Shown here: positions 3,238 through 55,200 of the stretch, piece by piece | Numbering within the stretch: position 1 is the stretch's first letter | How the letters are laid out: the number at the start of each line of letters is the position of its first letter | Assembly: GCA_951406725.2 (NCBI GenBank) | Contig: OX597819.1 | Span: 2,542,001-2,606,000, forward strand | Length of the DNA: 64,000 nucleotides | Direction of reading: 5' to 3' | From: Octopus vulgaris | Lineage: Eukaryota | Translations under genes and position numbers: made by a program | Notes under the pieces: generated by a model | What the model was told of the DNA's origin: nothing | What the model saw: only the letters and a program-made list of their open reading frames with translations | The model's database searches: none

Positions 3238-4913
3238 CTGCAGAAGAAAGAAAAAACTAATAGTAGTAGGAAGAAAAAACGGAGATGGAGAGCAATGGAA
3301 GAGTGTCAATCGCAATTGATGTTGGCAGTTTACCAAATCGACGTAGAATGCGCCAAATTACTTGATAACAATATATTGCTACCAGTTTTTAAAAGGAATT
3401 AAAAATGGAAAGTAAATGTTATTCGTAGTGTGTTGCCAGGTTTTTAAATGTTCGCAAGGAATTCGATTTAATATAATTTGCAGCTCAATTAAACATTAAT
3501 TGATGTATACACTGTTAGTATTACTATTTCATTGAAAATGTGGCAAACACCCCGGAGGAAAAGATAAGTTCCCAGTTTACGATTTCTTACTGAATCCGTT
3601 TTATTGGTCTCCCGCTACCTTGGGAAAACGCTTAGGGGTCACAGTATCCATTTTTCCTGTCTATAAAGCTGAGGCCTTGAATTTAGCTCCCAGTAATCAA
3701 TATATCGCGATTAAGATGTAAGAGCAACAGTGTAAAGGCAAAGCCCCTGGTGAATCAAGATTGTAAGCTTATTTCAATTTCTAATTCGTGTTATTCAAAT
3801 TTACATATTTCTAATTCTCTTAAAAAAACACATGAGCGAAATAACACCGAATTCTTTCTGGCTAGAGTATTTTCGATATCGTCCCTGGACGTATAATTTA
3901 ATTAGAAAATATTGGTGAAAGGGACTTTACGGTATCCTGTTTGGTACTTAACTGAGTTCGAAAGATGCTATGCTTTAATTTGTCTGCATCCTTCGAAGGC
4001 CAGTAACAGAACTGTTTCAGTCTATCAACTCTAGCTTTATACATCATCAGAGGAAAACTATATCCCAATACAACATTACCTTAAAACTGCAAATCACAAC
4101 GGGATATCTTAAGGTAACCTACTGGAAGAACAGTTGTGATTTTAAATTTACTTCATTTCAAAAACAAATTACTCATTCTCACATCATGTTGTAATCAACT
4201 ATGATCCAAACTTGTTGATAGATTAAATATGTTGAAGAACCTTAACTTTTCCTTCCTGAATAGTTTAAACTGTATAAACTAAAAGTATCTTCATAGAGAA
4301 ATAAACAAAACGACACTTTATAGCAGTTTGTCGTTGCTATGTACTGAGAATGTTTTTGTTCACCTAGCAAAGCACTTGTTAATTATATTGGAAACACTTG
4401 TTAATTATACTGGAAACTCTACTTATGATGTCCTCTTAAAGTTGAGTTTTCTGGATTACTGTAAGTAGATTTCTCATCAATACAGTACCGATGCACATAA
4501 CTCAATAGTAAACCTCAATTATCTGTGGAGTAACTGACACTATATCCTCTCACAAGTACTTACATTTTACCATTTATTGTGGATGGGGCCATAGAAAAGA
4601 TATTTACTTCCATTCTACGAGGATAAAAAAAAAAGAGGGAAATTGGACTTGACACTGCATGCCAACAAAATTCCCGTCCATTTTATATTGTTGCTACTTC
4701 TTACTATGAACAAGATACACCACATAATGTCGTAACTACTTGCACTTAAATGCAGTCATGTGTCGAGTACTGCCATGGCCAAAGACAAAGCTCGGAACCG
4801 GTGATAAAATACTAACGACTAGTATTCAGGTAAGTTTTCGGAAAGCTATTAGTTTCGACAGAGTAAATGAGTTATGTTGAAAACATTTCGTATATATTGA
4901 AAATGTTACGCAC

Positions 4914-5835
4914 GTGTTTTGGAGGAACTGTCTGTACTGTCAATTGCGCTGTCCTGACTAGTTTTACCATATATAGATGTGATGCTGGTAGAAAGTGACT
5001 CCTGCTTTTCCGATAGCTGATCTTCACTAAACACCATTTCTTTTAAGGCATCGGCCGCACCTACAAGAACTTTCTTTGTCTTTTTTGGTAGTTTCAGCTT
5101 TGCTTGAGCATGTGAGTAATAAAGTGTAAAATTATTGACAATAACTGGTACTGGAAGCGCCAGCATAAGAACACCACAAAGTGAGCATATTGCTCCAATA
5201 ATGTAACCGAGTAGGGTGTCAGGAACATAGTCACCATATCCAAGAGTTGTTATAGTAACGAGAGCCCACCAAAATCCGATGGGAATATTCAAAAATTTGT
5301 TGCTAGCTGTTTCATCTATTTGCTGGGCGTAATAGATAAGGCATGCGAATATGGTTATTCCCATAAAGACAACAATTATCAATAGAAGTAGTTCTTTTGC
5401 ACTCGCCTTCACTGTGTGAGCTAATATTCGTATACCACTGACATGTCGTGTCAAACGTAAAATTCGAAAAATACGTATGAGACGCAACATATTGACATAA
5501 TATGAAACTTCTGTTTTCATTCCAACAAATCTATCCACGATTTCACGTAAATAAAATGGTATTAATGAGAAAACGTCAATCCAATTGAGAAAATTTTTAA
5601 AAAAGATTAATCGGTTGGGACAAAATATTAATCGGATAACTAATTCAAATGTAAAGTAAGCTATGCATGTTATCTCGAGGATTTTAAATACTGTCAAAGG
5701 ATTTGTTTTCATGATTTTTTGCCGGACATTAAGTGTAGAGTTGTGTAATACTGGTACACGAAAATCTTCAAGTGATTCCAAAGTGAAAGATACAATTGAC
5801 ATCAAAACGAAGAAGACAGAAATTCCCTCCATGAT
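4914..5835 (-). CDS. Shaw: Shaw/Kv3 channel, coding exon 2 (S1-S6, pore, proximal C-terminus)
   Basis: Acceptor ttttctag|ATC at 5836/5835, phase 0, matching exon 1. S4 MLRLIRIFRILRLTRH, pore WWALVTITTLGYGD, S6 LPVPVIVNNF, Shaw-type YYSHAQAKLKLPKK, and an NST sequon in the S1-S2 loop. Donor C|GTGCGT at 4914, phase 1. Confidence 0.95.
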
Positions 5836-8489
5836 CTAGAAAACATAAAAAAAGTTTTAATAACATAGGGTTCTTGCACATTGTCAAGGATTATGGAAAA
5901 TATATCATAAAGTACATACTCCAAAGCAAATAAGTTTTTTCTCATATTGACTCTCATTCCTTCTCATAGCAATTCGTGTGAGACCGAAATGCATTGAGTT
6001 TTGCAGCTCGTTCATCAAAATAAAAGTATACAGTAAAACAATTGTGAATTACCCAGAAATTTGCCCTGTAATTATTGCTGTGTATATTTCTTGAAAGTAC
6101 GGCTTCAATTACACAAAGATTTCTATGATAAACCCTTGCAATAAGGATTAATATATTCCGTTATATAGATACGTATATAATTTTGTTCTTTTTCATCCTT
6201 GTTGTTTAGCTCCAGTTCAACCGTGTTTTAGTGGCCCAATGTTCAAAGATATTTCAATCGGGACTCTACTGTTTCGAAAGAAATGGTATCTGAATGAATA
6301 AATTTAGAAAGATAGCACTTTACGTTAGCGCACATGCAGCAATATTAGCGTATAAAGTAATCATTTCGATAGATAAAAAATTTGAGAGGCAGGGCTTTCC
6401 AGAGAAATGTTGCTCAAAAATGCTGTGGTTTATAGAGCCATCCTAACACTGCTTTCGGGATACCCTCGGTATCGGAAATTCTCGTTATCTCTTGTTTCTC
6501 GATTATTGTGATACTAGTGATATGGTTCCGAGATCAAGAAATTTACTTCCACAATATTATATGCAGCATTCTTGACAGACATGCTCATTACTCATGAGGA
6601 GGCTCTAATTCCCAGTTCTACCTTGGCTAATTGTTTAAGTCAAGCAATAGTTTTGTTGTCATCAACGAACCACTCTGTTAATGAACTTCAAACTATTGGC
6701 CGCTAATATACTAGATATACCCCTTAACTCTAGTTGGTTAACATGTAAATTCAGGGAAGATTAACTTCTAATTGCTCAAATTGAGATTGTTCCCTCTGCT
6801 AGCTTCCATTGTTAACACCTAGCAACGAATGCATCAAATATAATTTCGCACATAACGTCATCAAGTAACCTCGTACAGCAGACACATGTTTCCATCCAGG
6901 TGAAAGAACATATACACCGTCAGATTGTCCTTTCTACCACGTGTAACAACAAACGAGAAAATCAGTATACTTTCAATTCCAACACGTAACTTGAGCGGAC
7001 CAATAGAGGATCCTAATATTCTCATTTGAAAGCAATTTTTATTCATCTTCACTCTGTTCCCATGCATTCGATGAGCTCGACATGCTTTGACGTCTATGAA
7101 GTTTCAGTCAGCTGGTTGATAAATACATATAGCTTCTAGAATATGGATTGGGTGCTTTTCAGCTCGTTGCACATCTACTTGTATGCACACGCATACCTAC
7201 ATATACACATATATAACCAATTGAAATAAACGAATATAAACGGACAACATGAGGATGTACACAAGAAATGTATTAGCCTAACGTTCAGTGAAAGGAGAGA
7301 GTGTATCCTACATTTCTGAAGAAGAAAGGATTGCAGAGACCAACTCTCGAAAGCGATCTTAGTAATGCTAAATTGGGAACAACATAGGTTAGCTTCGAAG
7401 TTATATAGAGCACTCCATTACAAACAGCAGAATCAATTCTACGTTTGAATGTCATGCTGTCAGAACTGTCCTCCCAAATATTATTAAATAGCTTTGCTCA
7501 TATGAAACAACTTCTGACTTGGCGTGCTTCTCTTAATTTAGCAATATCAACACCAACACTTTTTAGGTTTCTATCAGTCATTAATGATTTTTGATGCTGC
7601 TGTCAAATAGCATAAAGCAAAATGTGTAGAAAAAGGAACACAATTCTTGCAATTTCGAAGAAGAGATTTTTTTATTTGCTTCTTTTGAATGATAACTGCT
7701 GTATGTGGGAAACAGTTACGTTACATCGAATCAGTATAGCTTTGTAATGTGCCTCTTATCAGACGCAGTCAGATTAAAATCTCAACAACCATAGCAGAGC
7801 TACGTCGCTTATGCGTCTAACAATGTCAATATCCTGTACTTTCCTACTTTGAAGAGTTAAAATTTACCCATAAAATCAGAACGCAAAGCATTTCTGTTGA
7901 AGATGATTTTGAAAGAACGAGAATTTTAAAACTGTTTTCAGTTTTTCAGTAGCACTAACCGTTTCTTTTTTGATAATTATATTTAAAATACTTTATATTT
8001 TTTTAATATTTGTTCAGATCATTGCTGGTTAGTCAGCGTGCCTAGGGAATGTATAATCATCCAGACATAACGGTAAACTGCCACAACTGAGCTTATGAAT
8101 ACTTGCCAGATATATATTTGGTTTCCAATATATAGCCAAAACAATCAGTGGGTACCAGGTCGAATCTGTTGCGCTTTTTAATATGATTGGTTCAACGAAA
8201 AGAAATGCGACTTTTGTGAAACTCATCATATGAGGAATTTAAAAGATTGTCATAATAATTGATATTCTGATATTTTTGTGGGGCTAACATCATTCATTTC
8301 AAGTCCTTCTTCAATTCCACTATAAACCAGTCCAATTTGATGGAACACTATAAATTCTCTGTCCTCGTATAAATAGCTAGTTTCTATAAATGAGGAAGTA
8401 AACAATGAGAATGTGTAATAAGTAGAACTGCTTGATCTACATATCCTGAATAAAAACCTAAAGGAAATTTGGAACCAAAGTTATTTACT

Positions 8490-9420
8490 GAAGAGTGTTT
8501 GGATGATCTTGCTAAAGACATCGCTACCTGAAGAAAAACCAGAGCTTCTCGCCTCAAGACTGAAACGGGGTAAGTTAACTGACAAAAATTAACAAGCTTT
8601 ACGGTTGACGGGCTTCTGTGCTATTGTAGTTGCATCCATGTGCCTTTCACAAATTTGTCTCTGACTCATCTACCATCCGACTGATGTCTCTTCATCAAAG
8701 CAGTTCTACTACTTGGCAGGAATGTAAAGCTATGTAATCCTATTGCCCACTTCGACTCTAAATTGAACATATGATAGTATGTTCATGCGTAGTTGATAAT
8801 ATTCAATACAATGTTCATTATAGATATCTTTGTTGGAATCTGAAAGTTACTGGCATACCAATGAACATGCAAGCAAGATTAGCAAAATATTGTTGCTTCT
8901 TATGTCTATAGAGCAGTCTTGCTACCACGGATTACTATAATAACCGTGATTAGCCCCTAACGTCGACATATATCGCAAGAATGAGCTACATTCAGCTATA
9001 TTCAAGCTGTTGTTTTAGTTAATACTCAAAACACATTTCTACCATCTCTTCGTATTGAACTTTGTTTAACGAAAACTTTGTTTAATAATGAATAAAGATA
9101 ATTCAAGAGGATCTCAATACCTTTCAAAAGAATGCTCAGGTGTAAGACAAAGTATAGGAAGAAATGTTTGCGTGACCGTAAATCAGGAAGGTATTAAAAG
9201 ATATTGAATTTAATCAAACTCTCAATACACTGTAATTAAAATCTTGATGGGCTTTTAAGTCGTTATGCGAAAACTTTCTAAAGAATAATAAGCGGGTTTA
9301 GAATTGAAATTATTGGTTGACTATTTTGTTATATTATATCGGAACTTAGACCATTTTCATATTAGAAAATCATATTCACTACACCTTTCAGAACTTGCCT
9401 AATGTATATTCTTTTCAATT
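8490..9420 (+). mobile_element. Heavily decayed DNA-transposon transposase remnant (superfamily not assigned)
   Basis: Frameshifted motifs in the expected order: ELLASRLK, AKYCCFLCL, LPSLRIELCLTK, WAFKSLCENFL. These recall a widespread invertebrate transposase family (ELLASRL...YTKYCCFLC...LPPLHIKLGLMK). Confidence 0.55.
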
Positions 9421-10029
9421 ACTGTTTTTTATATAAACATCGAGTGTTGGAAAACAAAAGTGTAACATATTTCCCAAGCCTATTTGCAACAGAATTGATA
9501 TAGTTCCAAACAGAAATCCAAATTTCTATGTAAGTTCAGCTCTATGAAACTTGCTACTCGTTATAGTATCGCAAAACTAATTATTTCTCAATTAGGCATC
9601 ATCCAAACGTATCGATTCCACATTGCTATAAAATATTAATGGCAATAAAATTGGTTGAGATAGAAGTGTGAGCTATACTGTCGAAAGTTAAGGTCCCCAT
9701 GACGTGTTCAGTTCGGCATTAATTGTAACCTCTTAAAGTGTACCCTTCGAATAACTGCAGAGTTTTGCCAACGAGTGATAGCTATTTCCGTTTATGGAGA
9801 AGAGTAGGTATGAATTTATGCATTCACATTCAAGATATACTAATGGTTACACATTTAACTTCAAAAGTGGAGAAAAAAATAGACTAATATCCTGTCGACA
9901 TTGTTATATTCTGACAGTATATATATGAAGCACCTGCTTTATAAAGCAACATATTTCTAAAACTATGGCATAAATTATACATTCTAACCTCTACAATATG
10001 AATTTAACCGCTATTCTTAGGAATCTTAA

Positions 10030-11080
10030 TATATAGAAGTTTATAGACATTATATATAATAGAGATTGCTTTAATAGATATGGGGAATAGAGAGTGTGAG
10101 TTTGTATTGATCGATATTATATATAGTAGAAGTAATATTGATAGCTGTTATATGCAGTAGGGATAATGTTAGAAAATATGCGAGCGGTGGCTAAGTAGAT
10201 AGACATTATATGTAGTAGAAGTTGTTTTGATACGCAATATTTCTAGTAACGTGTGTAATGATATATTATTCAGAAGGGTTTCTACAGATATGTTATGTGT
10301 AGTACATATTGTATTAATGGACGTTATGAATAGTGGAACTTGCATTGCTAGACATTTCGTAGTCAAGATAGTATTGTGTTAATAATTATTACAATTATGT
10401 GTTGTAGAGATTATACTGATAGATATTATGTGCAGTAGTTATTCGTAGAGATGTTATGCTGTACACATTGTACTAAGAGATATTATATGTCTAGTAGTTT
10501 GTGTATAGTAGAGGCTGTAGACATACATTATTTGTAGTAGAGATTGTAATGGTCGATATTTTGAACAGTGGAATTTTCATTGAGAAACCTTATGTTTACA
10601 GGAGTACAGGAGGTGTAATTATTCTAGAAAGATAGTTACATGTATTCAAGAATTTTATAAGAGACTTTGTGGCGTAGATGTTATAGAAGATTTTTGTATA
10701 GTAAATATTTCATTGATAAGTCTAATAAAGATTGTATTCATTAACATTATGTGTTGGAAGAGATTATATATACAGACATTACGAGCAGGAGAGACTAAAT
10801 TGACAGGCGTTTTATAAAATATCACATTTAGTGTTAATAGACATTATGGGTAGTAGATATCATAGCAAGATATATTGTGTGGTATAGATCGTATTGGTAG
10901 ATATTTATGAACACTAGCTATTATATCGTTAGACATTATGTGTTGTACATTTTTGCAATGTGAGACATTGTGAGTAGTAGATATTCCAGTCAGACATTAT
11001 CAGTGATAGATATTGCATATTGATATCTTGTGCTGAAGAGAATGTTACACTAAGAACAGACGGTATATTAATAACATTTG
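10030..11080 (+). repeat. Degenerate ~31-bp tandem repeat, forward block A1
   Basis: Recurring unit close to ATAGACATTATGTGTAGTAGAGATTGTATTG, e.g. near 10199, 10837 and 10930. Confidence 0.8.
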
Positions 11081-12099
11081 GCTGCATTTTGGGAAAAGTT
11101 TATCGTTTTCATGAAAAGTGTTCCTTGTCTATAATTTTGTCAGAATTTATTTATCAATTCAAGTTTCCATTTTCTCTTTTTCCTTTCAGAAACGCATTTT
11201 CACATAGTAGCGATATAGTGTGAATAAAGTTTGTTTATTAGTGAAACATAAGCTGCAATTATATAGTAGTCAATTTAGCCTTTTAATGAGAGGATAGCTC
11301 TTATATTCATTTCAACTATCTCATTTTAGATCTCATTTTATGAGATCTGACACTTTTCATCTATTTTAGACTAATTTTATGATTTTTTAAATTTGGCATA
11401 TTTTATCATACAAATACATGAAAGTATCACCGAAATGACGCACTTTATTGTAAACAGTGACATATTATAGAAAGAAGTGCATCACACAGGTAATAAATTC
11501 CGTCTGTTCAACGCCTGAAAACGTAGAATAAATATAAGAACAGGTTTGGCTTCTGTTTTCTTTCTTTTGTAAGTTTTCTTTTAATAGTCTGCCAACATAT
11601 ATGCATGCATTCCACATTCCCTGCTATCTTTTATTCATAGTTTTCATGTCTTGGTAGAAATGCTCTCTTTGCTTCTCCTAAATTAGCTGTGGTTAGTCTA
11701 AATTGTTGCGGAGGAAATGCGCTTTAATACTTGTATTACAACCTAGCTTGTGAAAAGAAGAAAGTAATACAGTCACCAGATCTTCAGAGTTTTCAGTTTT
11801 GTGGTTATCTACAAATATTTTTCACGGCTGGGAATGTCATTCATGTATGTTTCTTAACTGGTTAAAGTAAACTCACAAACAGACCATTTTTTCTTAATGT
11901 TCTTATCATCAAAGATACTTGACTTCAATTTCTATTGACTTAGAATTTAATTGTAGGATGTTTGAGACGTGTTTTCGACTGTTGGTGACCTGAAATCTCC
12001 TCCCAAAACTACCTGCCTATGAAATGCCTTCGTCTTACAATCTCCAGAATTAATAGCTTGTTACATAGATTGCATTATCACAGCATGCTGACGGAAATC

Positions 12100-12400
12100 T
12101 GGCGTATCTTTGGGTTTGGATTACTATTCCACTCCCTTTCTTTTATACATCAAGGACATACTTGCCGTTACGTCCAATAACACCCACTCTTACGCAGATA
12201 ATACAATTCTTCATTCTTCTCTAACCTTCTCCAGTCAGACACCTTTCACGCGCAACCTACAAAATACCACACCAAACATGCACTGGTTCCATGAAAATAT
12301 ACTTCAAAAGCATCTTTCAATGATCATATGCCAATATTATCTTATCAATAGTAAGAAAACACAAACGCTACTCATATGAAAACATCATGGCACCATGCTC
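12100..12400 (+). mobile_element. CR1/Jockey-like LINE reverse transcriptase fragment
   Basis: ORF 12110-12379 reads FLLYIKDI...HSYADNTIL (YADD-like)...INSKKTQ. Confidence 0.6.
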
Positions 12401-13639
12401 TCTCTTAAACATGAGCAGAATGCAACTTAGAACCCTCACTTACACAACCTTAATATAAATTAGAATCACATCCCAAAGTCTTACCCTTCTGTTCAGGTAA
12501 GTCCCACAATGGTGTGTTGCCCTCATATCTAGGATACATCTTCACATACAGACATCCTATACTGCACCCGAAATAAGGGTCACTGACTGGCATAAATTCA
12601 GTCATAGATCCTCTCAAGCCTCTAACCCACAAGCGTTCTATGGACCAGAGGTTGCTTTTTCTGTCGTAACTATGATAGTCTTTGCTCCTTGGAGTTTGCT
12701 GAGCTCATGCTGCCTCCACTCAGACATTTTTATTCAGCCGTTTTTCCATCCCTTATCACCCTTGTTAGATCCAGCCTCTCACAGGCCCCGCGCTATCTAC
12801 TATGCCCAAGTCTTCTATCTCAAAACATCATCTCACCCTGTAATCTCTTTTAGATGGACAAAACGGAGAATTTAGTGTAAGTACTTTGTTAGCCAAAGCA
12901 ATATTGAAATCACTTTCAAATTTCCACAAATAATCTAAATGTATTCGAAGTATTTGAACACTTTTTTCAGTTTTATTTTCATGGTTTTATGATTATTTAT
13001 AAGATATACTGAGTGGCTAACAGGTACAGAATCAAAAACATTTCCATTCTCAATTGAAACGTTATCTTTAGAACCTATGCCAGAGACTTTCTCTGTTTTA
13101 AAGATTTAATCTGAGAAATATTTTCTGGCAATATATTGTATTATATGTTTTATGATAGTTCGTGCAGTTATCTCTCTGTCATTAATCTATTACCATACCA
13201 TCTGATTGTATTCTTTTTTCCCTGTCACAAAGCAAGTGGATTGTTGTGGCATACAGGTTTTGTAGGAAATTAACTTAACCTTCGTCTTAAAAAGGTTTTC
13301 TAGATATTTTTTTTAAATAAAGAGAGTGGTTTGAATCGAAGATTTAATATCATTGACAATTTTCCAAAGCTACAAAAACAAGGTGAATTTTTGCACCTCT
13401 ATCCCTATAGTACTTAACAACTAAATTTGACGCACATATTGGGGAAAAAATAGATATCACATTGTGCATCCGTGAATCAAAGTTAGCCTAAAATACACTT
13501 CACCTTCAAACAAGTAAAATTATTGGAGATGAGTGAAATTATTACGCTTAGTATATAATAGTTATTGTATTCATAGTCACAGCGTGTAGTATTATGAGTA
13601 GTATATTGAAAAGATTATATTGTTGTTCTTTAGCGAGCC

Positions 13640-13960
13640 AACCCATCCAGCATTGAGATACTCCTCATATGCAATCAGATGCGTTGGGCAGAATACCTTA
13701 CTAGGATGGAGGATAACAAGTTACCTAAGCATTTTTCTACGGGGAGTTGCAACATGGTAACACACTAGATATAAACCCATATTAGGGTTGTCATCAAAAA
13801 CAACTCGTAGAGTAGATGTTGGACACTGGGAGCAGATGACAGAAAATCGATCGATTTGGAAAGAATGTATCTGCAACGGTTGTAAAGCATTTTGAAACAC
13901 AGAAAATTGAACGCTCTCTCTTGAAACGAGCGCTTCGTAAACCACCCCAAACACTTTTCT
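13640..13960 (+). mobile_element. RTE-clade LINE 3' fragment
   Basis: Translates, with frameshifts, to QMRWAEYLTRMEDNKLPK..FYGELQHG, the typical RTE C-terminal motif. Confidence 0.65.
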
Positions 13961-14074
13961 ACCTGAAAATGTTTGTAACATCTTCAGTAAAACTTACTAG
14001 GCATCTGAGATCTCATGGCGGCATTTACTAACTGAAGAGATGATCTTTTTCTATAAAGAAGTGGCAACCGCCAT

Positions 14075-14692
14075 ATTGACAGGTACTGTATGAAGTAAAG
14101 ATGGTATGCAGATATTATGTATAGTTGATGTTGAGTTGATGGACATTATGTATAGTAGCGACTGTGTATATACATTACAGGCCGTAGATATTTAAGTGCG
14201 AAAGGTTTCAAATTTACATGAGTTAGACATATATATTTTTAGTGTTACATATGTGTAATATACATTGTATTGATAAAAATGTTTGAAGTAGAGATTGTAT
14301 TGAATACCTTATGTAGTGTAGAGATAGTAGATAAATATGTTTTGGAGAGATTTTTATTATAGACATTGATAGATATTATGTGCTGCGAGTATTATGTGTA
14401 GTAGTAACGATTGCAGATAAACATTGTGCGCTGGAGAAATTGAATTAATTGGACATTATGTGCAATAGATGTATATTGATAGCTTATCTGTAGTTGAGGA
14501 GTACTATGGTAAAAAACTCAAGAGTGTATGATGTAGAGAATTATATTGAGATATTATGTATTATAGATGTAACATTGAACGATATTGTATGTGGTAGAAG
14601 TAGGGATATAGGTATTTTATGGAGCAGCGTTTGCAAACAGTCATTATATGAAGAAGACTTTGTAGATGGAAAAATGTAATAAAGTTTGTAAT

Positions 14693-14734
<42 letters not shown>

Positions 14735-16670
14735 TAGATAGATAGATATAGCTGATGTTGCATTGTGTGTGCTAGGTAGTAGAAATGAAATTATAAACAT
14801 TGTTTAGTATGTTTTATTGATATACAATAATATAGGTAAAAGAATTTACGTAGACACTGTGTGTAGTAGAGATTAAATTTATAGAAATAATATATAGTGG
14901 AGGTTTTATTGATAAATACGGTGCTGTTGAGAATGTATTAATTCGAAATATAATGTGTATTTATAGACGATATATATATTGTGGAGATTCAGTTGTTAAA
15001 CATCATACCCAGTAAAGTTTGTATTGGAGGACAGTAGGCGTAGTAGAATTTGTAAACATCATGTATAATACAGAGTATACTAATAAACTTTATCTGCAGG
15101 TGAGATTATTTGAAGTTATAAGACATGTGTAATAGAAATTGTAGATAATGTGTAGCGGAGATTGTTTCGAGAGCTACTATAAAAAGTAGATGTTTTAGCG
15201 TTAAAATCTATGTATACTAAAGATTACATTATATGTATTTTATATTGTAAATAGATATTATGAATTGCATGTATTTTGTAGATTGGCACTATGTGTATTA
15301 GAGGTTGTATACGTAGTCACTACATGGAAGAAAGTTTATGTTGATTGTCATTAGAATTTATGTACAAATAGAATTTGTACTCAGACACACTGCATATTGT
15401 GGATATTGTAGAGAGACATTAAGTGCAGCAGAGGTTTTAACTAATGGACACTATGTGAAATACAGATTTGATAGACATTATGTGAAGTTGAGATTGTATT
15501 GATAGATTTTAGGGTGGCAGACATGGTAGTGTTTTATGGAATAAAGTTTCTATTAATAGTGTAGCACAGAAAATTGATGAACACTATTTGTAGTAGAAAT
15601 TTTATTGTTAGACATATGTCGTGGAGGTTGTATTGATCGATATTATGTGTAGCAGAGGTTGCATTAATAGTCACTCTGCGTAGTGAGTCGTTGAAATTCT
15701 TTTAGAAGACATGGTGTGTATTCGAAATTATAGATAGACATTGCGTGTTGCAGAGATTTTATTGACATAAATGATATGTAGTAGAGTTTGTGAAAATAAA
15801 TATTGTTAGAGCAAGAGATAGTATTATTAGAGGCTATGCGTAGTAGATTTTATATTGCGTGATACTATATGTAGTTGAAATTGTTGATAGAAGATATGAG
15901 TAGTAAGAGTGGTATTGGTAGGCATTATAGCATGACGAGTAATAGGGTAGTTATTAGTAGATTGTATTGCGGATATTTTGTGTAGTAGTAACAGTGTGTG
16001 TGTGTGCGTATGTGTGAACAGCTTATATTGACGATATATCTTATGTATAATATAAATTGTGTAGTACACGTTGTAAATAGACGTGTATAGTGAGAGTTGT
16101 TTTGATAAACATTATGGACTGTGTATAATACAGGTTGTAGATATTAAGTGTTATAGAGTTCCTATCGATATTAACTATGTAGAGTTTATGTAGAGAGATT
16201 TGTGTACAAGAGGTTATAATGATAATATACCTATATCGCATTGGTAGTTATATGTAGTAGAGATTTTATTGATAGCATTAGGAGTATTTTATGAGTACTA
16301 TATATTGTAGTCATTGCCATTATTGTGGTAGATGTTAAAATAGTATAGTTAATGATTGGTAGAAATTGAAGTTGAAAACTTTGTTGAATGTGACATAGCA
16401 ATAAACATTATAAGTAGTCGATGATAAACGGGCGTTGTGTTGTGTTATTATACGTTATATTTAATAGGTTGTACAGATAGTTATTAAGTTTAGTATTATG
16501 TTAGTATCCATAGACATGCTATTTGAAGGGAGTATTGCGGAGGCATTGCTTTAGTGATTACCTGTATTAGATACGGTGTTAATGAAAATCACCGCTAAAA
16601 GTTATATATACAGTACAGGTAGTAGGAAAAATATAGACATTACGTTAAGTAGATACTTTTACTGATTATA
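14075..16670 (+). repeat. Degenerate ~31-bp tandem repeat, forward block A2
   Basis: Same unit as A1, e.g. 15471 atagacattatgtgaagttgagattgtattg and 15734 atagacattgcgtgttgcagagattttattg. Interrupted by (AT)n at about 14694-14750. Confidence 0.85.
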
Positions 16671-16684
16671 TATAATTATAAAAA

Positions 16685-16915
16685 GGCGGCGAGCTGGCAG
16701 AAAGGTTAGCACGCCGGGCGAAATGCGCAGCCGTATTTCGTCTCCCGTTACATTCTGAGTTCAAATTCCGCCGAGGTCGACTTTGCCTTTCATCCTTTCG
16801 GGGTCGATAAATTAAGTACCAGTTACGCACTGGGGTCGATGTAATCGACTTAATCCGTTTGTCTGTCCTTGTTTGTCCCCTCTGTGTTTAGCCCCTTGTG
16901 GGTAGTAAAGAAATA
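16685..16915 (+). mobile_element. tRNA-derived SINE, family A
   Basis: A-box-like TGGCAGAAAGG, B-box-like GAGTTCAAATTCC, microsatellite tail. Related copies at 36203, 46436, 61640 and 61868. Confidence 0.85.
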
Positions 16916-16938
16916 TATATATAATTATAAATAGTATG

Positions 16939-16971
<33 letters not shown>

Positions 16972-17061
16972 TATATATACACATATATATACATATATAT
17001 ATACATTTATGTATATATATATGTATGTATATATATATATTATATTTGTATATGTGCGTGA

Positions 17062-17340
17062 AGGCTCGCGTGGCCTAGTGGTGTTGCACATTGCACTCAC
17101 AATCACGCGGTAGTGGTTTCGATTCCCGGACCGGCGGTGCTTTGTGTTCTATTGCAAGGTATTTCATTTCATGTTGCTCCTGTTCACTCTACTGTAAATG
17201 GGTAAATATGCGACGGACTGGCGTTTCGGTCAGGAGGAACGTTGGCCTGCCCGCCTAGCCAGCGAGCTGGCATCATCTGAAAGTCACAATAATGTCAGGA
17301 AGCGCATCGTGACTAACGGTATATAACATAATACGATATT
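17062..17340 (+). mobile_element. tRNA/CORE-like SINE, family B
   Basis: TGGCCTAGTGG A box, GGTTTCGATTCCC B box, and body shared with the 30729 copy. Confidence 0.75.
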
Positions 17341-17495
17341 CTGGTCAGCACAGGGACATATATATATATATATATATTGAGAAAAAAGAGGCAGTCAGAA
17401 TTTTGGATAATTGTTTATTAGCGCTTTCGTTCGTTAACAGAGCTCTTCAAGACAAAACTTAAAACCTTTTTCTCAATATCTGTACACCACTTCAA

Positions 17496-17499
<4 letters not shown>

Positions 17500-17591
<92 letters not shown>

Positions 17592-17593
17592 TA

Positions 17594-17656
<63 letters not shown>

Positions 17657-17730
17657 GTATGATGTGTATATATATGTATGAATCCATATATATGGTGTAT
17701 GGATGGATGTGTGTATGAGTGTGTGTGTAT
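17500..17730. repeat. Compound microsatellite (AT)n(GT)n(AT)n
   Basis: Directly visible. Confidence 0.95.
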
Positions 17731-18632
17731 ACAGTATTATGTGTAAAATATATTGATAAATCGTCTTTCTATTTCTTTTGTAATACTCTTGATGTGAAAT
17801 TATGTTTAGGTGTGATGGTAATTTTGCTAATAAAGTACTCGCACATGTTCTCTTTCATTTTTTAATTATTATTTGTCAACTAATTAATCATTTAACTAAT
17901 CGATGGCTTAAAATCAGCAAGTGCGTAAAAATGACAAGTGTTCTACTATAAGAATTAAAAATTACCTTCACAATATCAAAGAGAGTGATACTCGTGTTTG
18001 TTATCCCGCTGAGTAAACCATATGTGTAACAGAGACTTAATTATCAAATAAGGTGAATGAAACAACCAGAGCTAAGTAAGAAAAAAAATACCATTCTTAG
18101 AATTATTATACTGTCTGCACACTACTGAACAACTTCAACATGGACACACAAACAACCCCATCAAAATATATAGCTTGTACAAGTGTCATACGAATTATCT
18201 GTCCTTAATCCTTTACTTGTCTTGTGTGCCACATGAGATGCACAGGACATATCTCCCTGGTAGCCATGTATCATATACGATACGCATTCCCAATTTATTT
18301 TCCAACCACCAGAGAGTAACTTAGGACTTAAGACTGGAAAGCTTTGTATTATTCAAGATGTATGAAACAAAGGCCAACTAAATGTTTGAAAATAAGCATG
18401 GACACTTAAGACAAACTTACAAAACTGCTTTGGACAGGCAAATGGTTAGATTACCATAGAATTACGCCATATCTAAGAAGATTAGCACTATTAATTGTCC
18501 GAATGAAATAGGGGGGGAAAACCTTCGCTAAAATTGGGAACTAGGAAATAACAGAAGCAATAACAACATGAACGATCACTGAGCAACAGCAATAACGACA
18601 ACAGGAACAACAGCTGCAGCAGCAACAGCAAG

Positions 18633-18985
18633 TGGAGGGGCAATAGCCCAATGGTTAGGGCAGCGGACTCGCGGTCGGAGGATCGCGGTTTCGATTCCCA
18701 GACCGGGCGTCGTCTGTGTTTATTGAGCAAAAACACCTAAAGCTCCACGAGGCTCCGGCACGGTGGGGGCGACCCCTGTTGTACTCTTTCACTCCAACTT
18801 TCTCTCACTCTTTCTTCCTTTTTCTTGTCCCCGACTTCCTAGGCAACCGCTGAGCCTGGATGCGCATTCATCCATCCGTCGATGCTCTCGGTGTCGGGGG
18901 TTGACCTGCTTTGTCTTCCTCAGGTCTTACGAATAGCAAAGGACCACGTTTCGGACTTCTCCCACTGGACGGAGACCGCTACGCT
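18633..18985 (+). mobile_element. tRNA-derived SINE, family B' (head shared with 30986), inserted in a CAA/CAG-rich tract
   Basis: Head ggttagggcagcggactcgcggtcggaggatcgcggtttcgattcccagaccgggcg is nearly identical to 31008-31063. Confidence 0.8.
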
Positions 18986-19679
18986 CAACAGCAACAGAAG
19001 TAACAGCAAAAACAATAAAAGCAACAGCAACCACAAACACAACAACAGTACATATCCTGGCTAATAAATACAAATGTGGCTCTAACTAAGCTATTAACCC
19101 AAATCTTACTACCACCATGAACGTTAGCAATAGCAGAGGCAGTAATAACGGTATCAGATATGACGAGGAAGCAAGCAATAACAATGACGTCAAACGTTCA
19201 ACTTGCTGTTACTTGAGGTCTTTTAGTGAGGCTTGGAACAGCTCATATAAAGCACACCAACAATAATGTAAACAAGAATAACGACGACGGCGACTTCTTT
19301 TATTTGACACAGCATTGTCTATTGAAAGGAAACATCACAAAGGCAAGTTACATTTTTATTTTGTGGGGCTTTAGATAAAAACGGAGGAGTAGAGTTTGGA
19401 AAAGGGGAAGGGAAATAAGAAAAAAGTATATATAGTATCAAAAATATGTGAATACATGGATGATGCAGTCCTCCTCGTACAGGGAAACCTTCAACTAGAA
19501 CCAGTCACAGTATCCTACGGATCCAGGAACTGTGCCATTCGAACGATTATGTCAACTGTTCCTCTCCTACAGAACTTAATACTGAGAGAATTTGAGGGGC
19601 ATTTGAGGTAATGGAAAATTTTGTGACATCACTTAAATATGATTCACGCAAACTAATAGGGGAGGCTACTGAAATTCCA

Positions 19680-20500
19680 CGTTCAGATCATACTATGGCA
19701 TGAATTAAAAGAAATGTAGGGATCCCATATGCAACCAGTTAAAGAAGAAAAAGGCGCGAAGACGCTCAGCGGATTTGTTGCAATGTAACTAACAGAGTTA
19801 GAGACTTTGTAGTAAAGTGGAAAATAGGATGGAAAGAACTTTGGTCCTGTGAGACGACCAGAAGCAGTCTTTTGATTCGCTTCTTCTACGACATGCTTTC
19901 TAATCCCGCAAACCTAAAGCGTTGGGAAATATAGAAGAATGACCTGTGCAGATGTGGGGTGGTTGGAATGGTGAGGCACATATTCTCCAACTCCAGTCTA
20001 AAATAGATACTCGTAGCGGCATAATCAAGCGCTTAGAGTACTGACTAGTGTGGTGAAGGAGAAGGTCAAGAGAATTAATAGCGGAAAACCACAAGTATTG
20101 AAGAATGGAAGGATATAGTTTTTCACGGAAGACGAACGTTCCAAGGCATCGATTGTGAGAATGGAGACCAATCCAAAGTGGTAAGAGGCGTAGACAGTGT
20201 CAGTTGTAAACACTGCTCCCACCTTTTTACCCCCAAAATGCCTGACCTTATTATGTGATGCAGAGGAAGGAAGTCTCCTGGGAAGCGAACATCTCAGGAA
20301 CAGCCGCCTGGAAAACATATATATGACATGAAGGACAGAATGTATAGTGCTGGTTAAACTCTTCAAAAATACAGGATTGGAGAAATATGCCTTCCTGTGG
20401 AAGATTTATTGGAACCAGGACTCGCTCAGAAACCTTGGAAAAAGACAAAGAAAAAAACACTTTTAGAGGAAACTGTCAGAAGCCGCAGAAAAAACTAACG
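19680..20500 (+). mobile_element. Decayed HERO-like non-LTR retrotransposon (restriction-like endonuclease type) fragment
   Basis: Frameshifted motifs LIRFFYDMLSNPANLKRW and AHILS, typical of the HERO C-terminal region. Confidence 0.5.
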
Positions 20501-20754
20501 TCAGATTCAAAACAAAGACATTTTGTATGTTTAGTACAGAGAACTTCTATTCAATAGAATCTAGAATGGAATTGGCTTATAGTCACAACGTCTAACTCAA
20601 CTATTTTTCCCTGTTGTGCAAGAGTTACGCCATCTACATGAGTGGATGGCCCCGGTGAGCTTTTGTGTTGCAGTGGAAGGGACCGGACACTTACAGATCT
20701 GCTACATCATCGCCTGACTCTCGCATTCAGAAATGGTTAACAGCAGCATCTTCA

Positions 20755-21690
20755 GCACATTGTATATTTGTCTTACACATCATGTCTATCGACATCATTT
20801 CTGCTATAAATTTATGTCATTTAATACAATTTCAACAACACATAATGTCTAATTACAGTTTTTATGATATAAAGTGTCTCTGAACACAAATTCTTTCTAT
20901 ACATAAGGTCTATCTACAATAGCTATATTTATCTATCTGCACAGACTATATTAAACATAATATCTAAAGGAAATTTCTTCTGTATTTAATGTCTTTGAAT
21001 ACAATCCCTTGTACATTACCACATACCGACTAAGAATAAATGTTCTTCTAAACATCTATTAGCCGGAATACCTATCTGTACATTGACTATAACGTATAAT
21101 ATCTGTCAACACAAACGCTCTTACGCATAATGAACATCAATATACACACAATATCGATCTGCATTCAGGGTTACAATCTCTAATAACACACAACACATAT
21201 CTATCTACATATTTTCTACACATAATTCCTGCTACAAATATTTATTGAATATACCCTACTACACTGACTGTTTATCTGCTTCCTCTACTAAACACATCTG
21301 TCAAATATCGACTATCCATAATATAGTAAATTTCTACAACACCAAATATCTATGAAAGCATTCTCTACTGCATACAGTGTCTATCAGTGCATCATCTGTA
21401 CATAAGGCTTATTAATACAATCTTTAAAACATATAATCACTCACTCCCTTCTACACGTATCTGTTAATATAATATCTACATCATATAGTGATTATCAAAA
21501 CAATATCTACTATACACATATCTACTATACAACATAACCAACATCTACTAATCTGCTATAACTAATATCAATTAATACACCCTCTTCTCCTGTACTACAA
21601 TCTTTTTTACAAGTAACATCTATCATTATAACCTCTACTACACATAACATCTATGAATACAACCTCTGTTGAACATAATATATGCGTAAT
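20755..21690 (-). repeat. Degenerate ~31-bp tandem repeat, reverse block B1
   Basis: Reverse complement of the A unit, e.g. 21631 acctctactacacataacatctatgaataca. Confidence 0.8.
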
Positions 21691-22629
21691 TTCTGTAAAA
21701 TAAGACTAGCAATATAAATGCAAATTCCACGGTTATTTTGAAATTTCTAAGATGCTTATAAGTTTATAGAGAGCCATGAAATACATAATTTCTTTTGAAA
21801 GTGTATCTCTTTTGAAACATTTGATTCTTCAGTTGATGCAGAAATCCACATATGTAGAGTTGAATTTGTAGTTTCAGGACACGCCATCTTTGAATACTAC
21901 ATCCCTTGTTATACATTTGTCTTTTCGAACTTGAGAGTTGATATCTTTTTTTTTTATCATGAAATAAACATGCCATGAAGTAAATATGGAATGAGACCGA
22001 AAACATGACTTATCTATAATATCATTTTGCTACTGCATAACAATGTTAGTAAAACTTTAGTAAGTCTTGATACACTGTATTCTACCCTTATTTTCAAATC
22101 AGAGATAAGTACATATTGTCAGGCTTGAACCCACATCCCCATTGAGTGAAGCTGCCCTACTGAGCTGTGACCAACTAAAAAAAAAACATATCAGTAATGT
22201 AAGATAATCATAGCTCTGGTCGTTGAAGAAAAGTGACACGGATTAAATCAAGTGAAAAATATTTAACAGTAGCAGAAAGTGCAGACTATGCCTATCTAAG
22301 AAAAAGCATTGTTAAAGACCCTCCCCTTATCTGTCTTTTAGGATTTCTCTCTCCTCTCTCTCTCTCTTTGTCTCTTTCTCTAACGTTTCTATGATCATTG
22401 CCTGCCACCAAGCTACATATGAGCACTTACCCTACACCTCTTATGTTACCTTTCTCTACTTCTCTTCTACTCTTCCCGCTTATGTTCGTTGATTTCTCCA
22501 TCTACTGTTTACATCGTAAGGAGAGAAATCAACCAGCCAGATAACATTTATATTGGTTGTTGCTGTTGTTGTGTCGCTGCTGCTGCTGATGCTGCTGTTA
22601 CTACTGTCATTATTATCATGGGGGAGCTA

Positions 22630-23320
22630 ACTGACAGTGTAGTTAGATCGTCTAATTGATCACTTTACAGTAATTGTTCTCGCTTGATACTCAATATTCT
22701 TGCATGTGTGTGTGTATGTATGTATGTATGTATGTATGTATGTATGTATGTATGTATGTATGTACGTACGTATGTACGTACGAACATACATACATACATA
22801 CATACATACATACATACATACATACATACATACATACATACATACATACATACATACATACACGATGTTGTTGCTAAGACAATTTACAATGCCATCCGCA
22901 AAAAAGACTGTCCTGAAATAAACTTAGAAAATCCCTCTGTTATGGAATACATTCATAAACACCAACTCAAGGAATACTGGTGGAATATTCCCCTCAAAAC
23001 CTCTGCCAAATGTAAACATAACAGGCCGAAAATTGTTTTTGGGACAGAGGAGCAAAGGTATGTAGCATCATAGAGGTTAGATACCCTGCAGATATAAATA
23101 TCTCTTTGAAAATCCAAGAAAAGGAGGATATCTATGGACAACTGCTTCGAAACCTCCAGCTTCTATATCCAGACTATGAATTCATATTCATTCCAATAAT
23201 AATTGGAGCACTAGGTTTTGTTAGTAAAATTCTTAAAGGAGAATCTGGTTAATTCGTGCATTACAAATGCAATCTGTGAGTGGAACAGTAAAAATATGCA
23301 AGACTTTCTCAAGTTCCAAA
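22630..23320 (+). mobile_element. R4/Dong-clade non-LTR retrotransposon 3' fragment, interrupted by a microsatellite
   Basis: HDVVAKTIY...EYWWNIPLKTSAKCKHNRPKIV (RH and HNRPD motifs of the restriction-like endonuclease), followed by IPIIIGALG. Confidence 0.7.
22705..22862. repeat. Inverted microsatellite (GTAT)n-(CATA)n
   Basis: Directly visible; the two halves are reverse complements. Confidence 0.95.
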
Positions 23321-23452
23321 TGTGAATTTGTCTGTGTTAACTACATCCCAAGGATGGAGCCTTTGTGTCTTTGCTGGAAACCGGCTCCCACCTCAGTATA
23401 ATAATCAAAAAAACAGAAGAGACATACATACATACATACATACATACATACA

Positions 23453-23485
<33 letters not shown>

Positions 23486-23692
23486 TTCATACATACATAC
23501 GTATAGGTATATTGAAAATCTTAGCATTTTCCCGTTTTTGCAGAAAAATAGTTTTTTTAATACTAAGATACAATTCAAAAATACTGTGAAGTCAGAGAAA
23601 GAGAGAAAAAAAGAAAGGGATTAAGAAAATGAGATAACTAAAGACGCAGTGACGTCACAAACCTTACTATTTTTTATATACTTTCTTCTCTT

Positions 23693-23739
<47 letters not shown>

Positions 23740-23909
23740 CTATTTATCTATCTATCATCGTGATTTAATCTCAGCATCATTTTCTTGCATGTATCTATTT
23801 GTATCTCTGTTTCTATTTACCACCGTCTCTTACCTTATCTTTCTTCTTTCGAGTTACTTCCCTTAGCGTTACGCAAATGATGGGTAGATAGGAACAATAT
23901 GCTAATGTA

Positions 23910-25050
23910 TTACTATACAAGTGTATATCGATAGAAATTCTGCTAAACGCAATACAACAAAATATGCTGTTTATCTATAAGATTCACTGTGTATAGTGTT
24001 GAGTCGTACAATCTCTGCAACATAATACGTTAATCTTGAAATTCTGCCACATATCTATCAAACAACCTCCATTACAGTAATATTTGTAAATCCTGCCTCC
24101 ACTCCATAAACGCTTTATCAATGAAATTAATTTATACACTTAATTTTAATAATATAAAACTCAGCTGCACATTGTATCTAGAATGTCTAGTATACATGAT
24201 GTTTAGGTATATAATGTCCCGTACACTAATGTTTATCTATAAACATTACGCGTGTCTGTAATACATGTCTATAATACAGTTTCCACTATATATAATGTTT
24301 ATCAAAAATCTGTTAGACTTTCCATACAACATATAATAATGCCTACCAGCACAATTTCTACAATGTTTAGTATTTGTCTCCAATTTTTACTACTTACGAT
24401 GACTATCAATACGTTCCCTACTAGATATAATGTATGTTAATTAAATCCCTACAAAGCAATGTATGTCTACACAAAATTCCCAGCTATACAGAATATCTAT
24501 CCATATAACCTCTCCTACATGTTCATATGATATCTATCAACACAATGTCTAGTCTATATAATGTCTATGAATACAATTAAGTTATATATAATATCCATTG
24601 ATACAATTTCTACGAAATATAATGTTTCAATGCGATTTATCCAGCTCATAATTATCTAAAATCTGTACTATGATATGCATAGTGTTAATATAATCGCTAT
24701 TGCAAATAATGTCTATCTCTTCAATTTCTACTAAATATAATACCTATCAATAAAATCTATACAGCATATAACGATTATTTAAAATCTCTACTCTTCAATC
24801 TCAACTCTATAATAACTAGGAATACAATTTTTATAACATAACTGTCTGTCTACAATCGCTATTACACAAGATATTCATCAATAAAAAGTCTACTACTTAT
24901 AACGCCTAGTCACTCTTACGCATAACGTTTATCTATAATCTCTCCATAAAATTATTAATAACAATATAAACTATACCAAATATAATATGTATCGATAATC
25001 TCTACTACATACTATGTCTGTCTATAATTGCTACAAGACATAATATCTCT
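23910..25050 (-). repeat. Degenerate ~31-bp tandem repeat, reverse block B2
   Basis: e.g. caatttctactaaatataatacctatcaata near 24723 and aatctctactacatactatgtctg near 24997. Confidence 0.8.
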
Positions 25051-25099
25051 CCGCAAGTTTTGTCATGAAATTTCCGCAGACACGGTCAGAAACTTTACT

Positions 25100-28399: not shown

Positions 28400-28720
28400 G
28401 GGTGCTTTTACATACCACTGGCATGAGTGCCAGTCAGACGGTACTGAACATTGGTCACGCTCAATGGTGCTTTTTACATGTCACAGCACGGGTCAGATGG
28501 GTGTCATCGACCACGCTCGAATATGCTTCTTGCGTGCCATCGGCACGGGTGCCAGTCAAGCAGCACTGGCATCGGCCACGCTTGAATGGTGCTTTTTACG
28601 TGCCACCGGCACGGGTGCCAGTCAGGCGGCACTGTCATTGACCACGCTCGAATGGTCCTTTTTACGTGCCACCGGCAAGGGTGCCAGTCAGGTAGCACAG
28701 GCATTGGCCACGACTACGAT
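28400..28720. repeat. 66-bp tandem repeat, about 5 copies
   Basis: gtgccagtca recurs at 28427, 28549, 28615 and 28681 (last spacings 66 bp). Confidence 0.9.
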
Positions 28721-34019: not shown

Positions 34020-34440
34020 ATAGAAGCTGGTTTTTTCGACCGATTCCTGTACTCTCCTTATTAGTTTTCGCAGCTCGGAGCTAGAAAAACACAAATCTTC
34101 TTTTGAAAAGCGTTGTCATTTTCCTTTCAATGAAGCCTCTAGCCCCACTGCCAGGTGATAATATTCGACATTCCATCCCTGTTCTCTGAATTCTTCGATT
34201 AGCTTTTCGTACCTCTTCTTCTTTCGTTCCTCTGCATTGCCGATGTTCTCTTCCGAAGGTACTGTCAGATCTAGTAAAATTCCTATTCTCCGGTCTCTGT
34301 TCCATAGGACTAAATCTGGTCTTTTTGTCGTTGTTATTAGTGGAAATATTACTTGTCTTTCCAAGTCCGTGGCCACCTTCCAGTCTAATGGTTTCATTCC
34401 AGCCCAAGATAACTTTTCAAGACATAATTCTTTTTTCTAT
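34020..34440 (-). mobile_element. HERO-like non-LTR retrotransposon restriction-like endonuclease fragment
   Basis: DWKVATDLERQVIFPLITTTKRPDLVLW...LDLTVPSEEN...ERKKKRYEKL...AVG(A)RGF. Confidence 0.8.
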
Positions 34441-42497: not shown

Positions 42498-43058
42498 TTT
42501 AGCTGGTATAGAAGAATTGGGATATTCCATTATTCTCCAAATTTTTGGTTTCCAGTTTTGCCAAAATGTTCTTTCACTGACATCATCACTAATACCAAAT
42601 ATATTTGGTACTTCGTCTTCATGGATATCTTCATCTCCGTTATCCAATTCAGTGACAGTCTGCTGGGCTTCTCGGTGTGCACGGTAATTTGACCAACAAC
42701 AAGGTTCTATTTGTTTTTCGTCAAGACCCCAAAAGTTTAATTCATTTTCAAAAAGTGGACCACATACATCTGTAGGAACATGAAGAAATCCCGTTCTGTA
42801 ATAGTTCAGAATCATAGAGAATACTCCGGGATGACGATCAAAGAAAAATTCGTCTGTTACAGGATCGTAATCAGGGTTACTAGCGGTTGTCTCAGTTAGC
42901 CAAGACAATCGAGTATCAGGAATATTTTTTAACGTCGATTTGTAAGTTTCATAACGAATACCACTGACATTTATTATTATCCGGTTGTCAAATCGTCTTG
43001 ATGGCATCATAGAAACTTTTGGTATTAGCGACGTGCACAAAGTACGTTCTTTCTCCAT
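42498..43058 (-). CDS. Shaw: Shaw/Kv3-type voltage-gated K+ channel, coding exon 1 (N-terminus and T1/BTB tetramerisation domain)
   Basis: Translation contains [35 protein letters not shown], the Zn-site pattern [11 protein letters not shown]...EPCCW and WKPKIW...PNSSIPAK, typical of Kv3/Shaw. ATG context is ACAATGG. Donor AAA|GTAAGA at 42498/42497, phase 0 (187 codons). Confidence 0.95.
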
Positions 43059-53800: not shown

Positions 53801-55200
53801 TGTAGCCCACTCAGCTTTGGCTCAGTTACAACACATATCAATTTCTAGTGACCTAAGGTTGTCCAGGAGACAGGTTTGCTTCTATTTCGACCCTAGGCCA
53901 CTCACATTAATACATCTAACTTAAATTCCATAGAAATTCTTACTTACATTTTGATCTTGGGGAGCGGCTGAACGAATTCAGTCCCCCCCCCCACACACAC
54001 ACACACATGCTCCTTCTTCTTTGGTGGAGCCGCTGGACTCACGATGAAGCTCTTGCCGGCCACATCTGCGCTTATGTCCTTTGTGTCTTCTTTATATCTT
54101 TGTTGTTTGTGTTAGTTCATTGAATGAACTCACCTCCATTCTGACCATCCGAATGTGAGGTGGCAAGTCCTGGTTTGCTTTGTACACTTGCGCTTTATGG
54201 TGTGCACTTATAATTCGTGACAAAGCTTCATTGCTTTCTTTGAATGATACAATTTTGTATTGTACTTTCTGTGTCTGCGGTTGCTTTGTTATTGTATGGG
54301 GGGGGGGGAGTCTGGGACTGGGGCCTATTTTTCTTTTTGTGATTTCGCTAATGTAAATCCTGTTTCTTCTGTGTTTGGAGTTTCTTGCCTTGTTGGTTCG
54401 CTTTCCCTGGGCACTTCTGTTTGTTTTTTTCTTTCTTTGGTTGTTTTTCTTTTTCTGTTATGTCTTTGGATATTCGTTGAGGAGGGGCTTCGTTCTTTTT
54501 CTCTTGACATCCTGAGTGGAGGTGGCTTTTTTCGCCGCACTTAAAACAGCGTGGCCTACGTCTCTCAACGCTCACTCTCACGCTTAGCCCCTCACCTATG
54601 AACACCCTATCGGGAAGTCCTTCGAAGATTTCCGGGCCTCCTTTTCTGTATTTGCAGCATTGACATTTGTTGTACGGCTGCTGCAATCCACAATACGTCC
54701 AAATCAGCTGGAATTTCCTCCACTTCAATTTTCGCCGTTCTCCTGCCTAGATAAGTTGTCAGGAGAATTAATTCGTCATTTTTTCAGTGTTAGTGTCGAC
54801 AGCTCTTTTGCTGTACTTTCGTCGAAGAATTGTGCCTCCACTGTAGCACTTCTTATCTCGCGTCCAACATATTTTATTTTGTTCCAAATGGGTTGCATAC
54901 ACTTTTCAACTACTTCATTTCTGACCGACATTATTCGCATTTCTTTAAGACTGTACATCTTAAAGAACACAATCTTGGCAGCTATATTCTGCAGTATACC
55001 TTGCGGAGGAAGTAACTTGGTATCATTTCTTGTTTTCTTTATCATATTTCGATATTTAAACAATTCCGCCATAGACACGTTCAAGTTTACCATATTGCCG
55101 CCAACAGCTGCTGAAAAACTAGTTTTTTTTCCCCTTCTGAACCTGTTTTGCACTTTCTTTTCCGTTTTCTTTTACCTTTTCTATCACTGGGAAGTCCGAA
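50880..55200 (-). mobile_element. Near-full-length, frameshifted Tx1/L1-clade LINE
   Basis: ORF1 remnant (55153-54348) with CFKCGEKSHLHSGC zinc knuckle. ORF2 remnant (about 53931-50890) with endonuclease YAPN, LGDIN, SYLDR, TDHK, YWKMNNS; RT KSPGLDGLP, QGCLLSPLLY, AYADD; C-terminal CPRC motif. Confidence 0.9.

Follow-up and report, generated by a model that had tools for sequence, protein, structure and literature searches.

What is the 15-kb structure of oppositely oriented repeats that lies in the intron of a Kv3/Shaw potassium channel gene of Octopus vulgaris? The gene is contained in a stretch of 64,000 nucleotides (hereafter the window, 2.54–2.61 Mb of a 135.6-Mb contig, OX597819.1, in a genome of 2.8 Gb), in which a preliminary description, made from the letters alone, had discerned inverted arrays of a cryptic 31-bp repeat and had proposed either an ancient foldback element or an inverted satellite, possibly folding into a duplex that recruits ADAR or shortens the effective intron. 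The analysis identified a decayed 31-bp repeat of about 188 units with 69–73% identity to the consensus, arranged in four main blocks (A1, A2, B1 and B2). The reading we prefer, with a probability of about 0.65, is that of a dead single-locus minisatellite, which grew in place, was later partly inverted and is now neutral intron filler.

The array runs forward at 10030–16670 and in reverse at 20755–25060, and its orientation changes once. When compared with 100 dinucleotide shuffles, lag 31 was the top autocorrelation peak in four of five array pieces, with z values of 5.4 (10030–11080), 5.0 (14760–16670), 5.7 (20755–21690) and 6.2 (23910–25050); the remaining, short piece (14075–14690) had its top peak at lag 16 (z 3.2) and lag 31 outside the top eight. 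Lag 31 was the top peak in none of five control stretches, one of which had it at z 2.1. Iterative refinement recovered exactly the consensus of the preliminary description, and cyclic profile scores were 490, 1006, 395 and 491, with shuffled sequence scoring -28 to -84 and the opposite strand -128 to -392. A profile built from 20 two-unit pieces yielded 55 matches in the window, 20 of which are the source pieces themselves and guaranteed by construction; 33 were on the plus strand, all within 10043–16467, and 22 on the minus strand, all within 20772–25048. Both the cryptic tandem repeat and its single switch of orientation are thus borne out. The expected periodicity was present as well, but Tandem Repeats Finder (TRF) detected mere fragments of the array.

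The 31-bp unit reads as a 15+16 dimer, and lags 15 and 16 appear in the autocorrelation. Spacing between units was 31 in 25 cases, 29 in 14 and 30 in one, unlike simulated random indels, in which 30 is no rarer than 29. A two-state model classed 117 of the 188 units as long and 56 as short, with 15 left unclear; applied to simulated pure 31-mers, it made 21 false short calls in 180. The 29- and 31-bp units are mixed in irregular order through all four blocks, which favours growth by exchange between units and matches the pattern known as minisatellite variant repeats. Adjacent units are no more similar to each other than distant ones, suggesting that the growth phase was short relative to the decay. 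All four blocks are about equally decayed, and the raw unit divergence of 27–31%, equal to 0.34–0.40 substitutions per site, exceeds the per-lineage distance to a related species (organism D, considered below) more than tenfold. The majority bases at one column hinted at mirror symmetry of the unit, which was not confirmed. A coding repeat was rejected because neither 31 nor 29 is divisible by three and because the blocks hold no open reading frame (ORF) of at least 100 amino acids. At unit columns 6, 12, 14 and 26, transitions of CA/TG to TA reach 26–40%, about twice the level of G to A after A (9–19%).

Later insertions have broken the array. Interspersed repeats interrupt both arms, as previously described, and also make up a large part of the centre (Table 1); their labels as long or short interspersed nuclear elements (LINEs and SINEs) derive from motifs and copy number. 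The fragment inside the forward arm, which we take to be LINE-like, accounted for 40 of 41 non-self genome matches, at 65–80% identity (at least 40 genomic matches). The first SINE-like element of the centre is bounded on both sides by a 16-bp direct repeat, and the centre holds no transposase ORF of at least 100 amino acids. Because the centre and the gap between B1 and B2 are largely inserted repeats and microsatellites, the original array may have consisted of approximately 3.7 kb in forward orientation adjoining approximately 2.1 kb in reverse. After a simple inversion the centre would still contain the old flank, whereas a fold-back junction would leave nothing but insertions there. Four stretches of the window (22860–23420, 61131–61487, 34116–34436 and 19400–20750) are presumably remnants of retrotransposons lacking long terminal repeats (non-LTR), with restriction-like endonuclease motifs. 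Two of these remnants are bordered by runs of (ACAT)n or (ATT)n.

Table 1. Features of the array and of its host gene, in window coordinates.
Feature	Position	Strand	Description
Block A1	10030–11080	+	~34 units of 31/29 bp, 72% to consensus; autocorrelation, profile, colinear in organism D
Small array remnant	13546–13630 (about)	+	Separated from A2 by interspersed repeat; profile match
Interspersed repeat fragment inside array	13622–14077		ATATTG on both sides; 31-bp phase continues across
Block A2	14069–16670	+	~84 units, 71% to consensus; (TA)n run at 14695–14750
Centre	16671–20754		Mostly interspersed repeats and microsatellites: 16654–17378, 18205–18450, 18580–19050, LINE-like remnant at ~19887–20133
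Block B1	20755–21690	-	~31 units, 69% to consensus
B1–B2 gap	21691–23909		Repeat-derived pieces 21698–22110, 22763–23503, 23667–23756, and microsatellites
Block B2	23910–25060	-	~38 units, 73% to consensus
Host exon 2 (encodes membrane-spanning segments and pore)	4906–5835	-	PF00520, PF07885
Host intron	5836–42497	-	36,662 nt, GT-AG, phase 0; only intron of the Kv3/Shaw gene
Host coding exon 1 (T1 domain)	42498–43058	-	PF02214; best match human Kv3.1, E 4.5e-54

As judged by patterns near its consensus, the 31-bp array is confined to this one locus. With up to three mismatches allowed, the 31-mer has a single match in the genome, which lies in the window, and the window holds seven of nine and seven of eight matches of two 25-mers, for which about 2.2 matches each are expected by chance and reversed controls gave one each. 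None of the three 25-mer matches outside has a neighbouring unit at 29/31 spacing, and a weight-matrix scan of 864 kb, of which 664 kb surround the locus and 200 kb a paralog, revealed no other array and two isolated bins at single-unit level. A genome search with the consensus, as the preliminary description had suggested, returned no inverted-pair arrays at other loci, and the 25-mer matches outside are at chance level. BLAST of an array piece against its own genome recovered only the piece itself and missed the sister blocks, which makes it uninformative here; a generic periodicity scan of the 864 kb was too noisy for counting other fossil arrays, and an exact degenerate 24-mer had no genome match, in a search without a positive control. 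In the literature on octopus satellites and on cephalopod or inverted minisatellites no paper on this repeat was found, though supplementary repeat tables could name it. A satellite family would be abundant, multi-locus or very long and homogenised; the array measures 5.7 kb at one locus. Of the proposed inverted satellite, the inverted tandem array therefore stands, as a single-locus minisatellite and not as a satellite family.

With head-to-tail units in the 10–100 bp range, one locus (for patterns near this consensus) and interspersed variant units, the array has the features of single-locus minisatellites, or variable number tandem repeats (VNTRs). The 30-bp repeat in intron 3 of human CACNA1C (10.1101/311795) is similar in its roughly 30-bp unit, hundreds of copies, single locus, location in a voltage-gated channel intron and mixed variants. 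The octopus array differs in being decayed (~70%), broken by insertions and internally inverted, with no length turnover seen in A1, and no activity is claimed for it. Inversions within tandem arrays are described as common (PMC2588610), and the human satellites with internal inversions treated there share the single orientation switch within an array, but those are large, multi-locus families. On the minisatellite reading, a 15/16-bp motif would have doubled to give the 31-mer, after which unequal exchange or slippage would have quickly spread 31/29-bp variants until the array measured about 6 kb. A single inversion or template switch that broke in or beside the array could then have reversed about 2 kb; turnover would have ceased, leaving the array to be eroded by point mutations, indels and transposon insertions, and the pre-mRNA would form just short, scattered helices.

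The state of the array in other samples was assessed by comparing contigs of four sequencing runs over 4700–14690 and A1; two of these, X1 and X2, both from a single study, hardly differ in A1 and are possibly related to the source. The length of A1 is identical in X1 and X2, and X4 differs by only three single-base gaps, so that A1 displays no present-day variation in copy number; it is because of this constancy that the array is called a fossil. In organism D, A1 is present and colinear with the left flank and exon 2. Differences to organism D were found at 35 of 1051 positions in A1 (3.3%), 46 of 619 in the piece 13941–14559, which is mostly A2, covers its start and is the most divergent intron piece, and 289 of 5506 in the other intron pieces (5.2%). 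The pooled array pieces (81/1670, 4.9%) do not differ from the rest of the intron (p 0.57). The contig of organism D carries 387 other bases in place of 1358 of the intron adjacent to exon 2 (window 5939–7298). Run X2 also contains short deep contigs at 5230–5275 (inside exon 2) and 7004–7042, with long unrelated tails on both sides, which perhaps represent another organism or a paralog.

Several observations weigh against a neutral, single-locus minisatellite. The three outside matches, as compared to 4.4 expected, leave room for about 45 equally decayed units elsewhere by a hand estimate, and the pattern searches are blind to a family with a different consensus. In their order of 29- and 31-bp units, A2 and B1, one of six block pairs, match better than 497 of 500 shuffles. 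Pairing between the whole arms exceeds chance, with 62 helices of at least 15 bp as compared to 2–6 in three shuffles. Finally, A1 alone changes slowly: it is less divergent in organism D than the other intron pieces (p 0.008) and, less clearly, than its own contig flanks (123/2657, p 0.086); among the differences listed for X1, taken as complete to 12029, it holds one and 3726 bases of flank hold 28 (p 0.012); and, among 32 listed differences, the consensus base is kept by the window in 21 and by organism D in five, a skew equalled in one of 150 symmetric simulations.

The strongest competitor, which we nevertheless regard as unlikely, is that the array is what remains of a transposon of foldback, Mutator or Helitron type, as its last or a locally expanded copy; such an element would have carried a few 31-bp units in its inverted arms or its internal region, and these would have multiplied in this copy only. 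The tail-to-tail arms around a centre made mostly of later insertions would fit such an origin, and Tetris (PMC4079207) and oyster Helitron arrays (PMC8268682) provide precedents. A further case lies 135 kb past the window, where a young, one-directional 37-bp array (C6:2740082–2746421; 171 copies, 6.3 kb, 89% matches) belongs to a dispersed carrier with two large arrays: its unit occurs elsewhere as 2–6 units in a dispersed element at at least nine places with common flanks, and as a 1.45-kb array at C17:11299285–11300739. Local growth to such a size thus occurs in this genome, which makes the 37-bp array a present-day analogue in favour of the minisatellite reading, and a transposon origin of the 31-mer is compatible with it as well. 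The 31-bp array shares with the oyster arrays and the 37-bp repeat the multi-kb, short-unit form in euchromatin, but neither a carrier element nor short sister copies came to light in its case, and the pattern and matrix searches revealed no second copy.

Foldback transposons such as FB, Galileo and Tetris (PMC4079207) also have long inverted arms of short tandem units and a non-coding middle; here, no other copies, flanking domain, target site duplication (TSD) or arm-specific identity were found. All block pairs align at 57–62% in many offsets on both strands, and none of the six clearly beats unit-order shuffles under four gap settings and a weighting for shared rare bases, the best being A1–B1 (z 1.1–1.9). 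The order match between A2 and B1 was not repeated at base level (z -1.1 to 0.9), and for A1 and B2, the outer arms, shuffles did as well in five of six settings, though these register tests are blind to a duplication made while the units were still uniform. The outer flanks gave no credible similarity, in a test whose power was 3/30 for a shared domain of 50 bp, 2/30 for 100 bp, 16/30 for 200 bp and 24/30 for 300 bp, and which therefore leaves short domains to the transposon relic; apparent flank matches were dismissed as low-complexity or off-register. Within 120-bp windows at the outer ends there is no direct repeat of at least 8 bp, which is uninformative here, as decay at such an age would erase a TSD. 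A foldback family is therefore not supported, nor is the ancient foldback element of the preliminary description.

Less probable still is that A1 was co-opted as a cis-regulatory element, for example a Kv3 enhancer acting independently of any duplex, with the rest of the array neutral. The lower divergence and polymorphism of A1 and the 21:5 skew would be expected of a constrained element, and the intronic 30-bp repeat of CACNA1C, which is reported to act as an enhancer (10.1101/311795), is the nearest functional precedent. The signal stems, however, from one outgroup species and one block, and it is weak against the flanks of the same contig. Moreover, consensus and non-consensus sites of A1 differ similarly (2.8% and 3.7%), and in X1 the low-difference stretch (9623–11205) exceeds A1 while a further one lies at 4700–7281, with 7 differences in 2582 bases; patchy haplotypes can therefore account for the pattern in that run. 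The slow change and the skew might also stem from a faster lineage of organism D or from such patchiness.

We consider it very improbable that a register-free, insertion-tolerant duplex, edited by ADAR or looping out 15 kb of intron, has been kept for that function. The pre-mRNA carries the consensus in its B blocks and the complement in the A blocks further downstream, and the many-register pairing suggested earlier is real: 155-nt arm pieces on this strand bind at -27.1 ± 8.4 kcal/mol, as compared to -17.5 ± 6.1 for shuffles (30 pairs each), and the whole arms form six helices of at least 20 bp (none in three shuffles), the longest of 25 bp including G-U pairs. Such pairing is nonetheless weak and long-range. 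Complements carrying 30% and 20% substitutions reach -63 and -117 kcal/mol, respectively, and with its short helices the array falls well short of the stable, long duplex that an ADAR substrate would need. The antisense strand pairs about equally well (-24.0 versus -16.9 for shuffles). Inverted Alu pairs likewise place reverse-oriented repeats within one intron, and in human data (PMC4066801) their editing decays on a scale of about 800 bp and similarity has a small effect; the octopus arms, at about 58–62% identity, lie at least 4.1 kb apart at their nearest, beyond the range of appreciable Alu editing. Squid introns with repeats are reported to undergo editing (PMC9068888), and low-level editing of the arms is therefore possible.

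Nor is there a sign of selection for pairing. Transitions tolerated through G-U pairs on the pre-mRNA strand are rarer than disruptive ones (odds ratio 0.82, p 0.012; three of four classes), that is, depleted where pairing selection would enrich them, and the duplex also has to accommodate the high divergence of the A2 start in organism D. This slight imbalance, we infer, is in keeping with strand-biased mutation that followed an old inversion. Complementarity between array and exons was not above shuffles in any of four tests covering both exons. The closest Shaw paralog (C4:10287167–10329800) carries, at the corresponding position, an intron of about 41 kb that lacks the 31-bp array, and the proposed shortening of the effective intron finds no support. 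A functional duplex is thus not supported, and co-option of a one-off inverted minisatellite at Kv3, be it as an ADAR-edited register-free duplex across 4–15 kb or through A1 as a constrained regulatory element, stands at long odds. A hairpin occurs in the same intron at 22698–22865, where (ATGT)n is directly followed by (ACAT)n, with 82-nt arms that are 91% complementary and a 4-nt loop; it is by prediction a far better ADAR substrate than the 31-bp arms.

A one-step insertion in which a small circular template was copied into two back-to-back arms, through twin priming by a Penelope-like enzyme, would explain the sudden uniform array, its single switch and the lack of similarity between neighbours, but is highly improbable. 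A single template would hardly yield units of two lengths that follow each other irregularly, the pattern and matrix searches revealed no family elsewhere, and Rfam returned 46 weak matches, none at gathering score and none within the arrays. Retrozymes and twin-primed arrays have a hammerhead ribozyme, many genomic copies and units of 170–500 nt; the unit found here, at one locus, has 31 bp and is ten times shorter than the elements in question.

If the fossil minisatellite is accepted as the best reading, the locus is an ordinary one, yet it offers a clean example of repeat death, in which an intron looks unique and its origin is missed by standard repeat finders. With the same unit preserved in both orientations, it is also a natural test piece for strand-specific mutation. 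The array would gain in importance if the slow change of A1 held, or if so poor and distant a duplex proved to be edited, which would widen the range of cephalopod ADAR substrates.

As to the surroundings, the location in a potassium channel intron is confirmed: by its domains and best match, the host is a minus-strand Kv3/Shaw gene. Upstream of it lies a broken LINE (51677–55171, minus strand) with endonuclease-like and reverse transcriptase frames. The 37-bp unit also occurs on C3 as two short arrays in opposite orientation, 2.3 kb apart (3940–4066 on the minus and 6403–6498 on the plus strand of the extracted piece L100), and its array on C17 is adjoined by a second tandem array with a unit of about 62 bp (extracted piece L101:6242–7191). 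Younger tandem repeats of 66, 102, 42, 166 and 184 bp are found at 28505–28712 and 63505–63777 of the window, at C6:2810171–2810633 and C6:2895696–2896616, and, for the 184-bp unit, at several spots.

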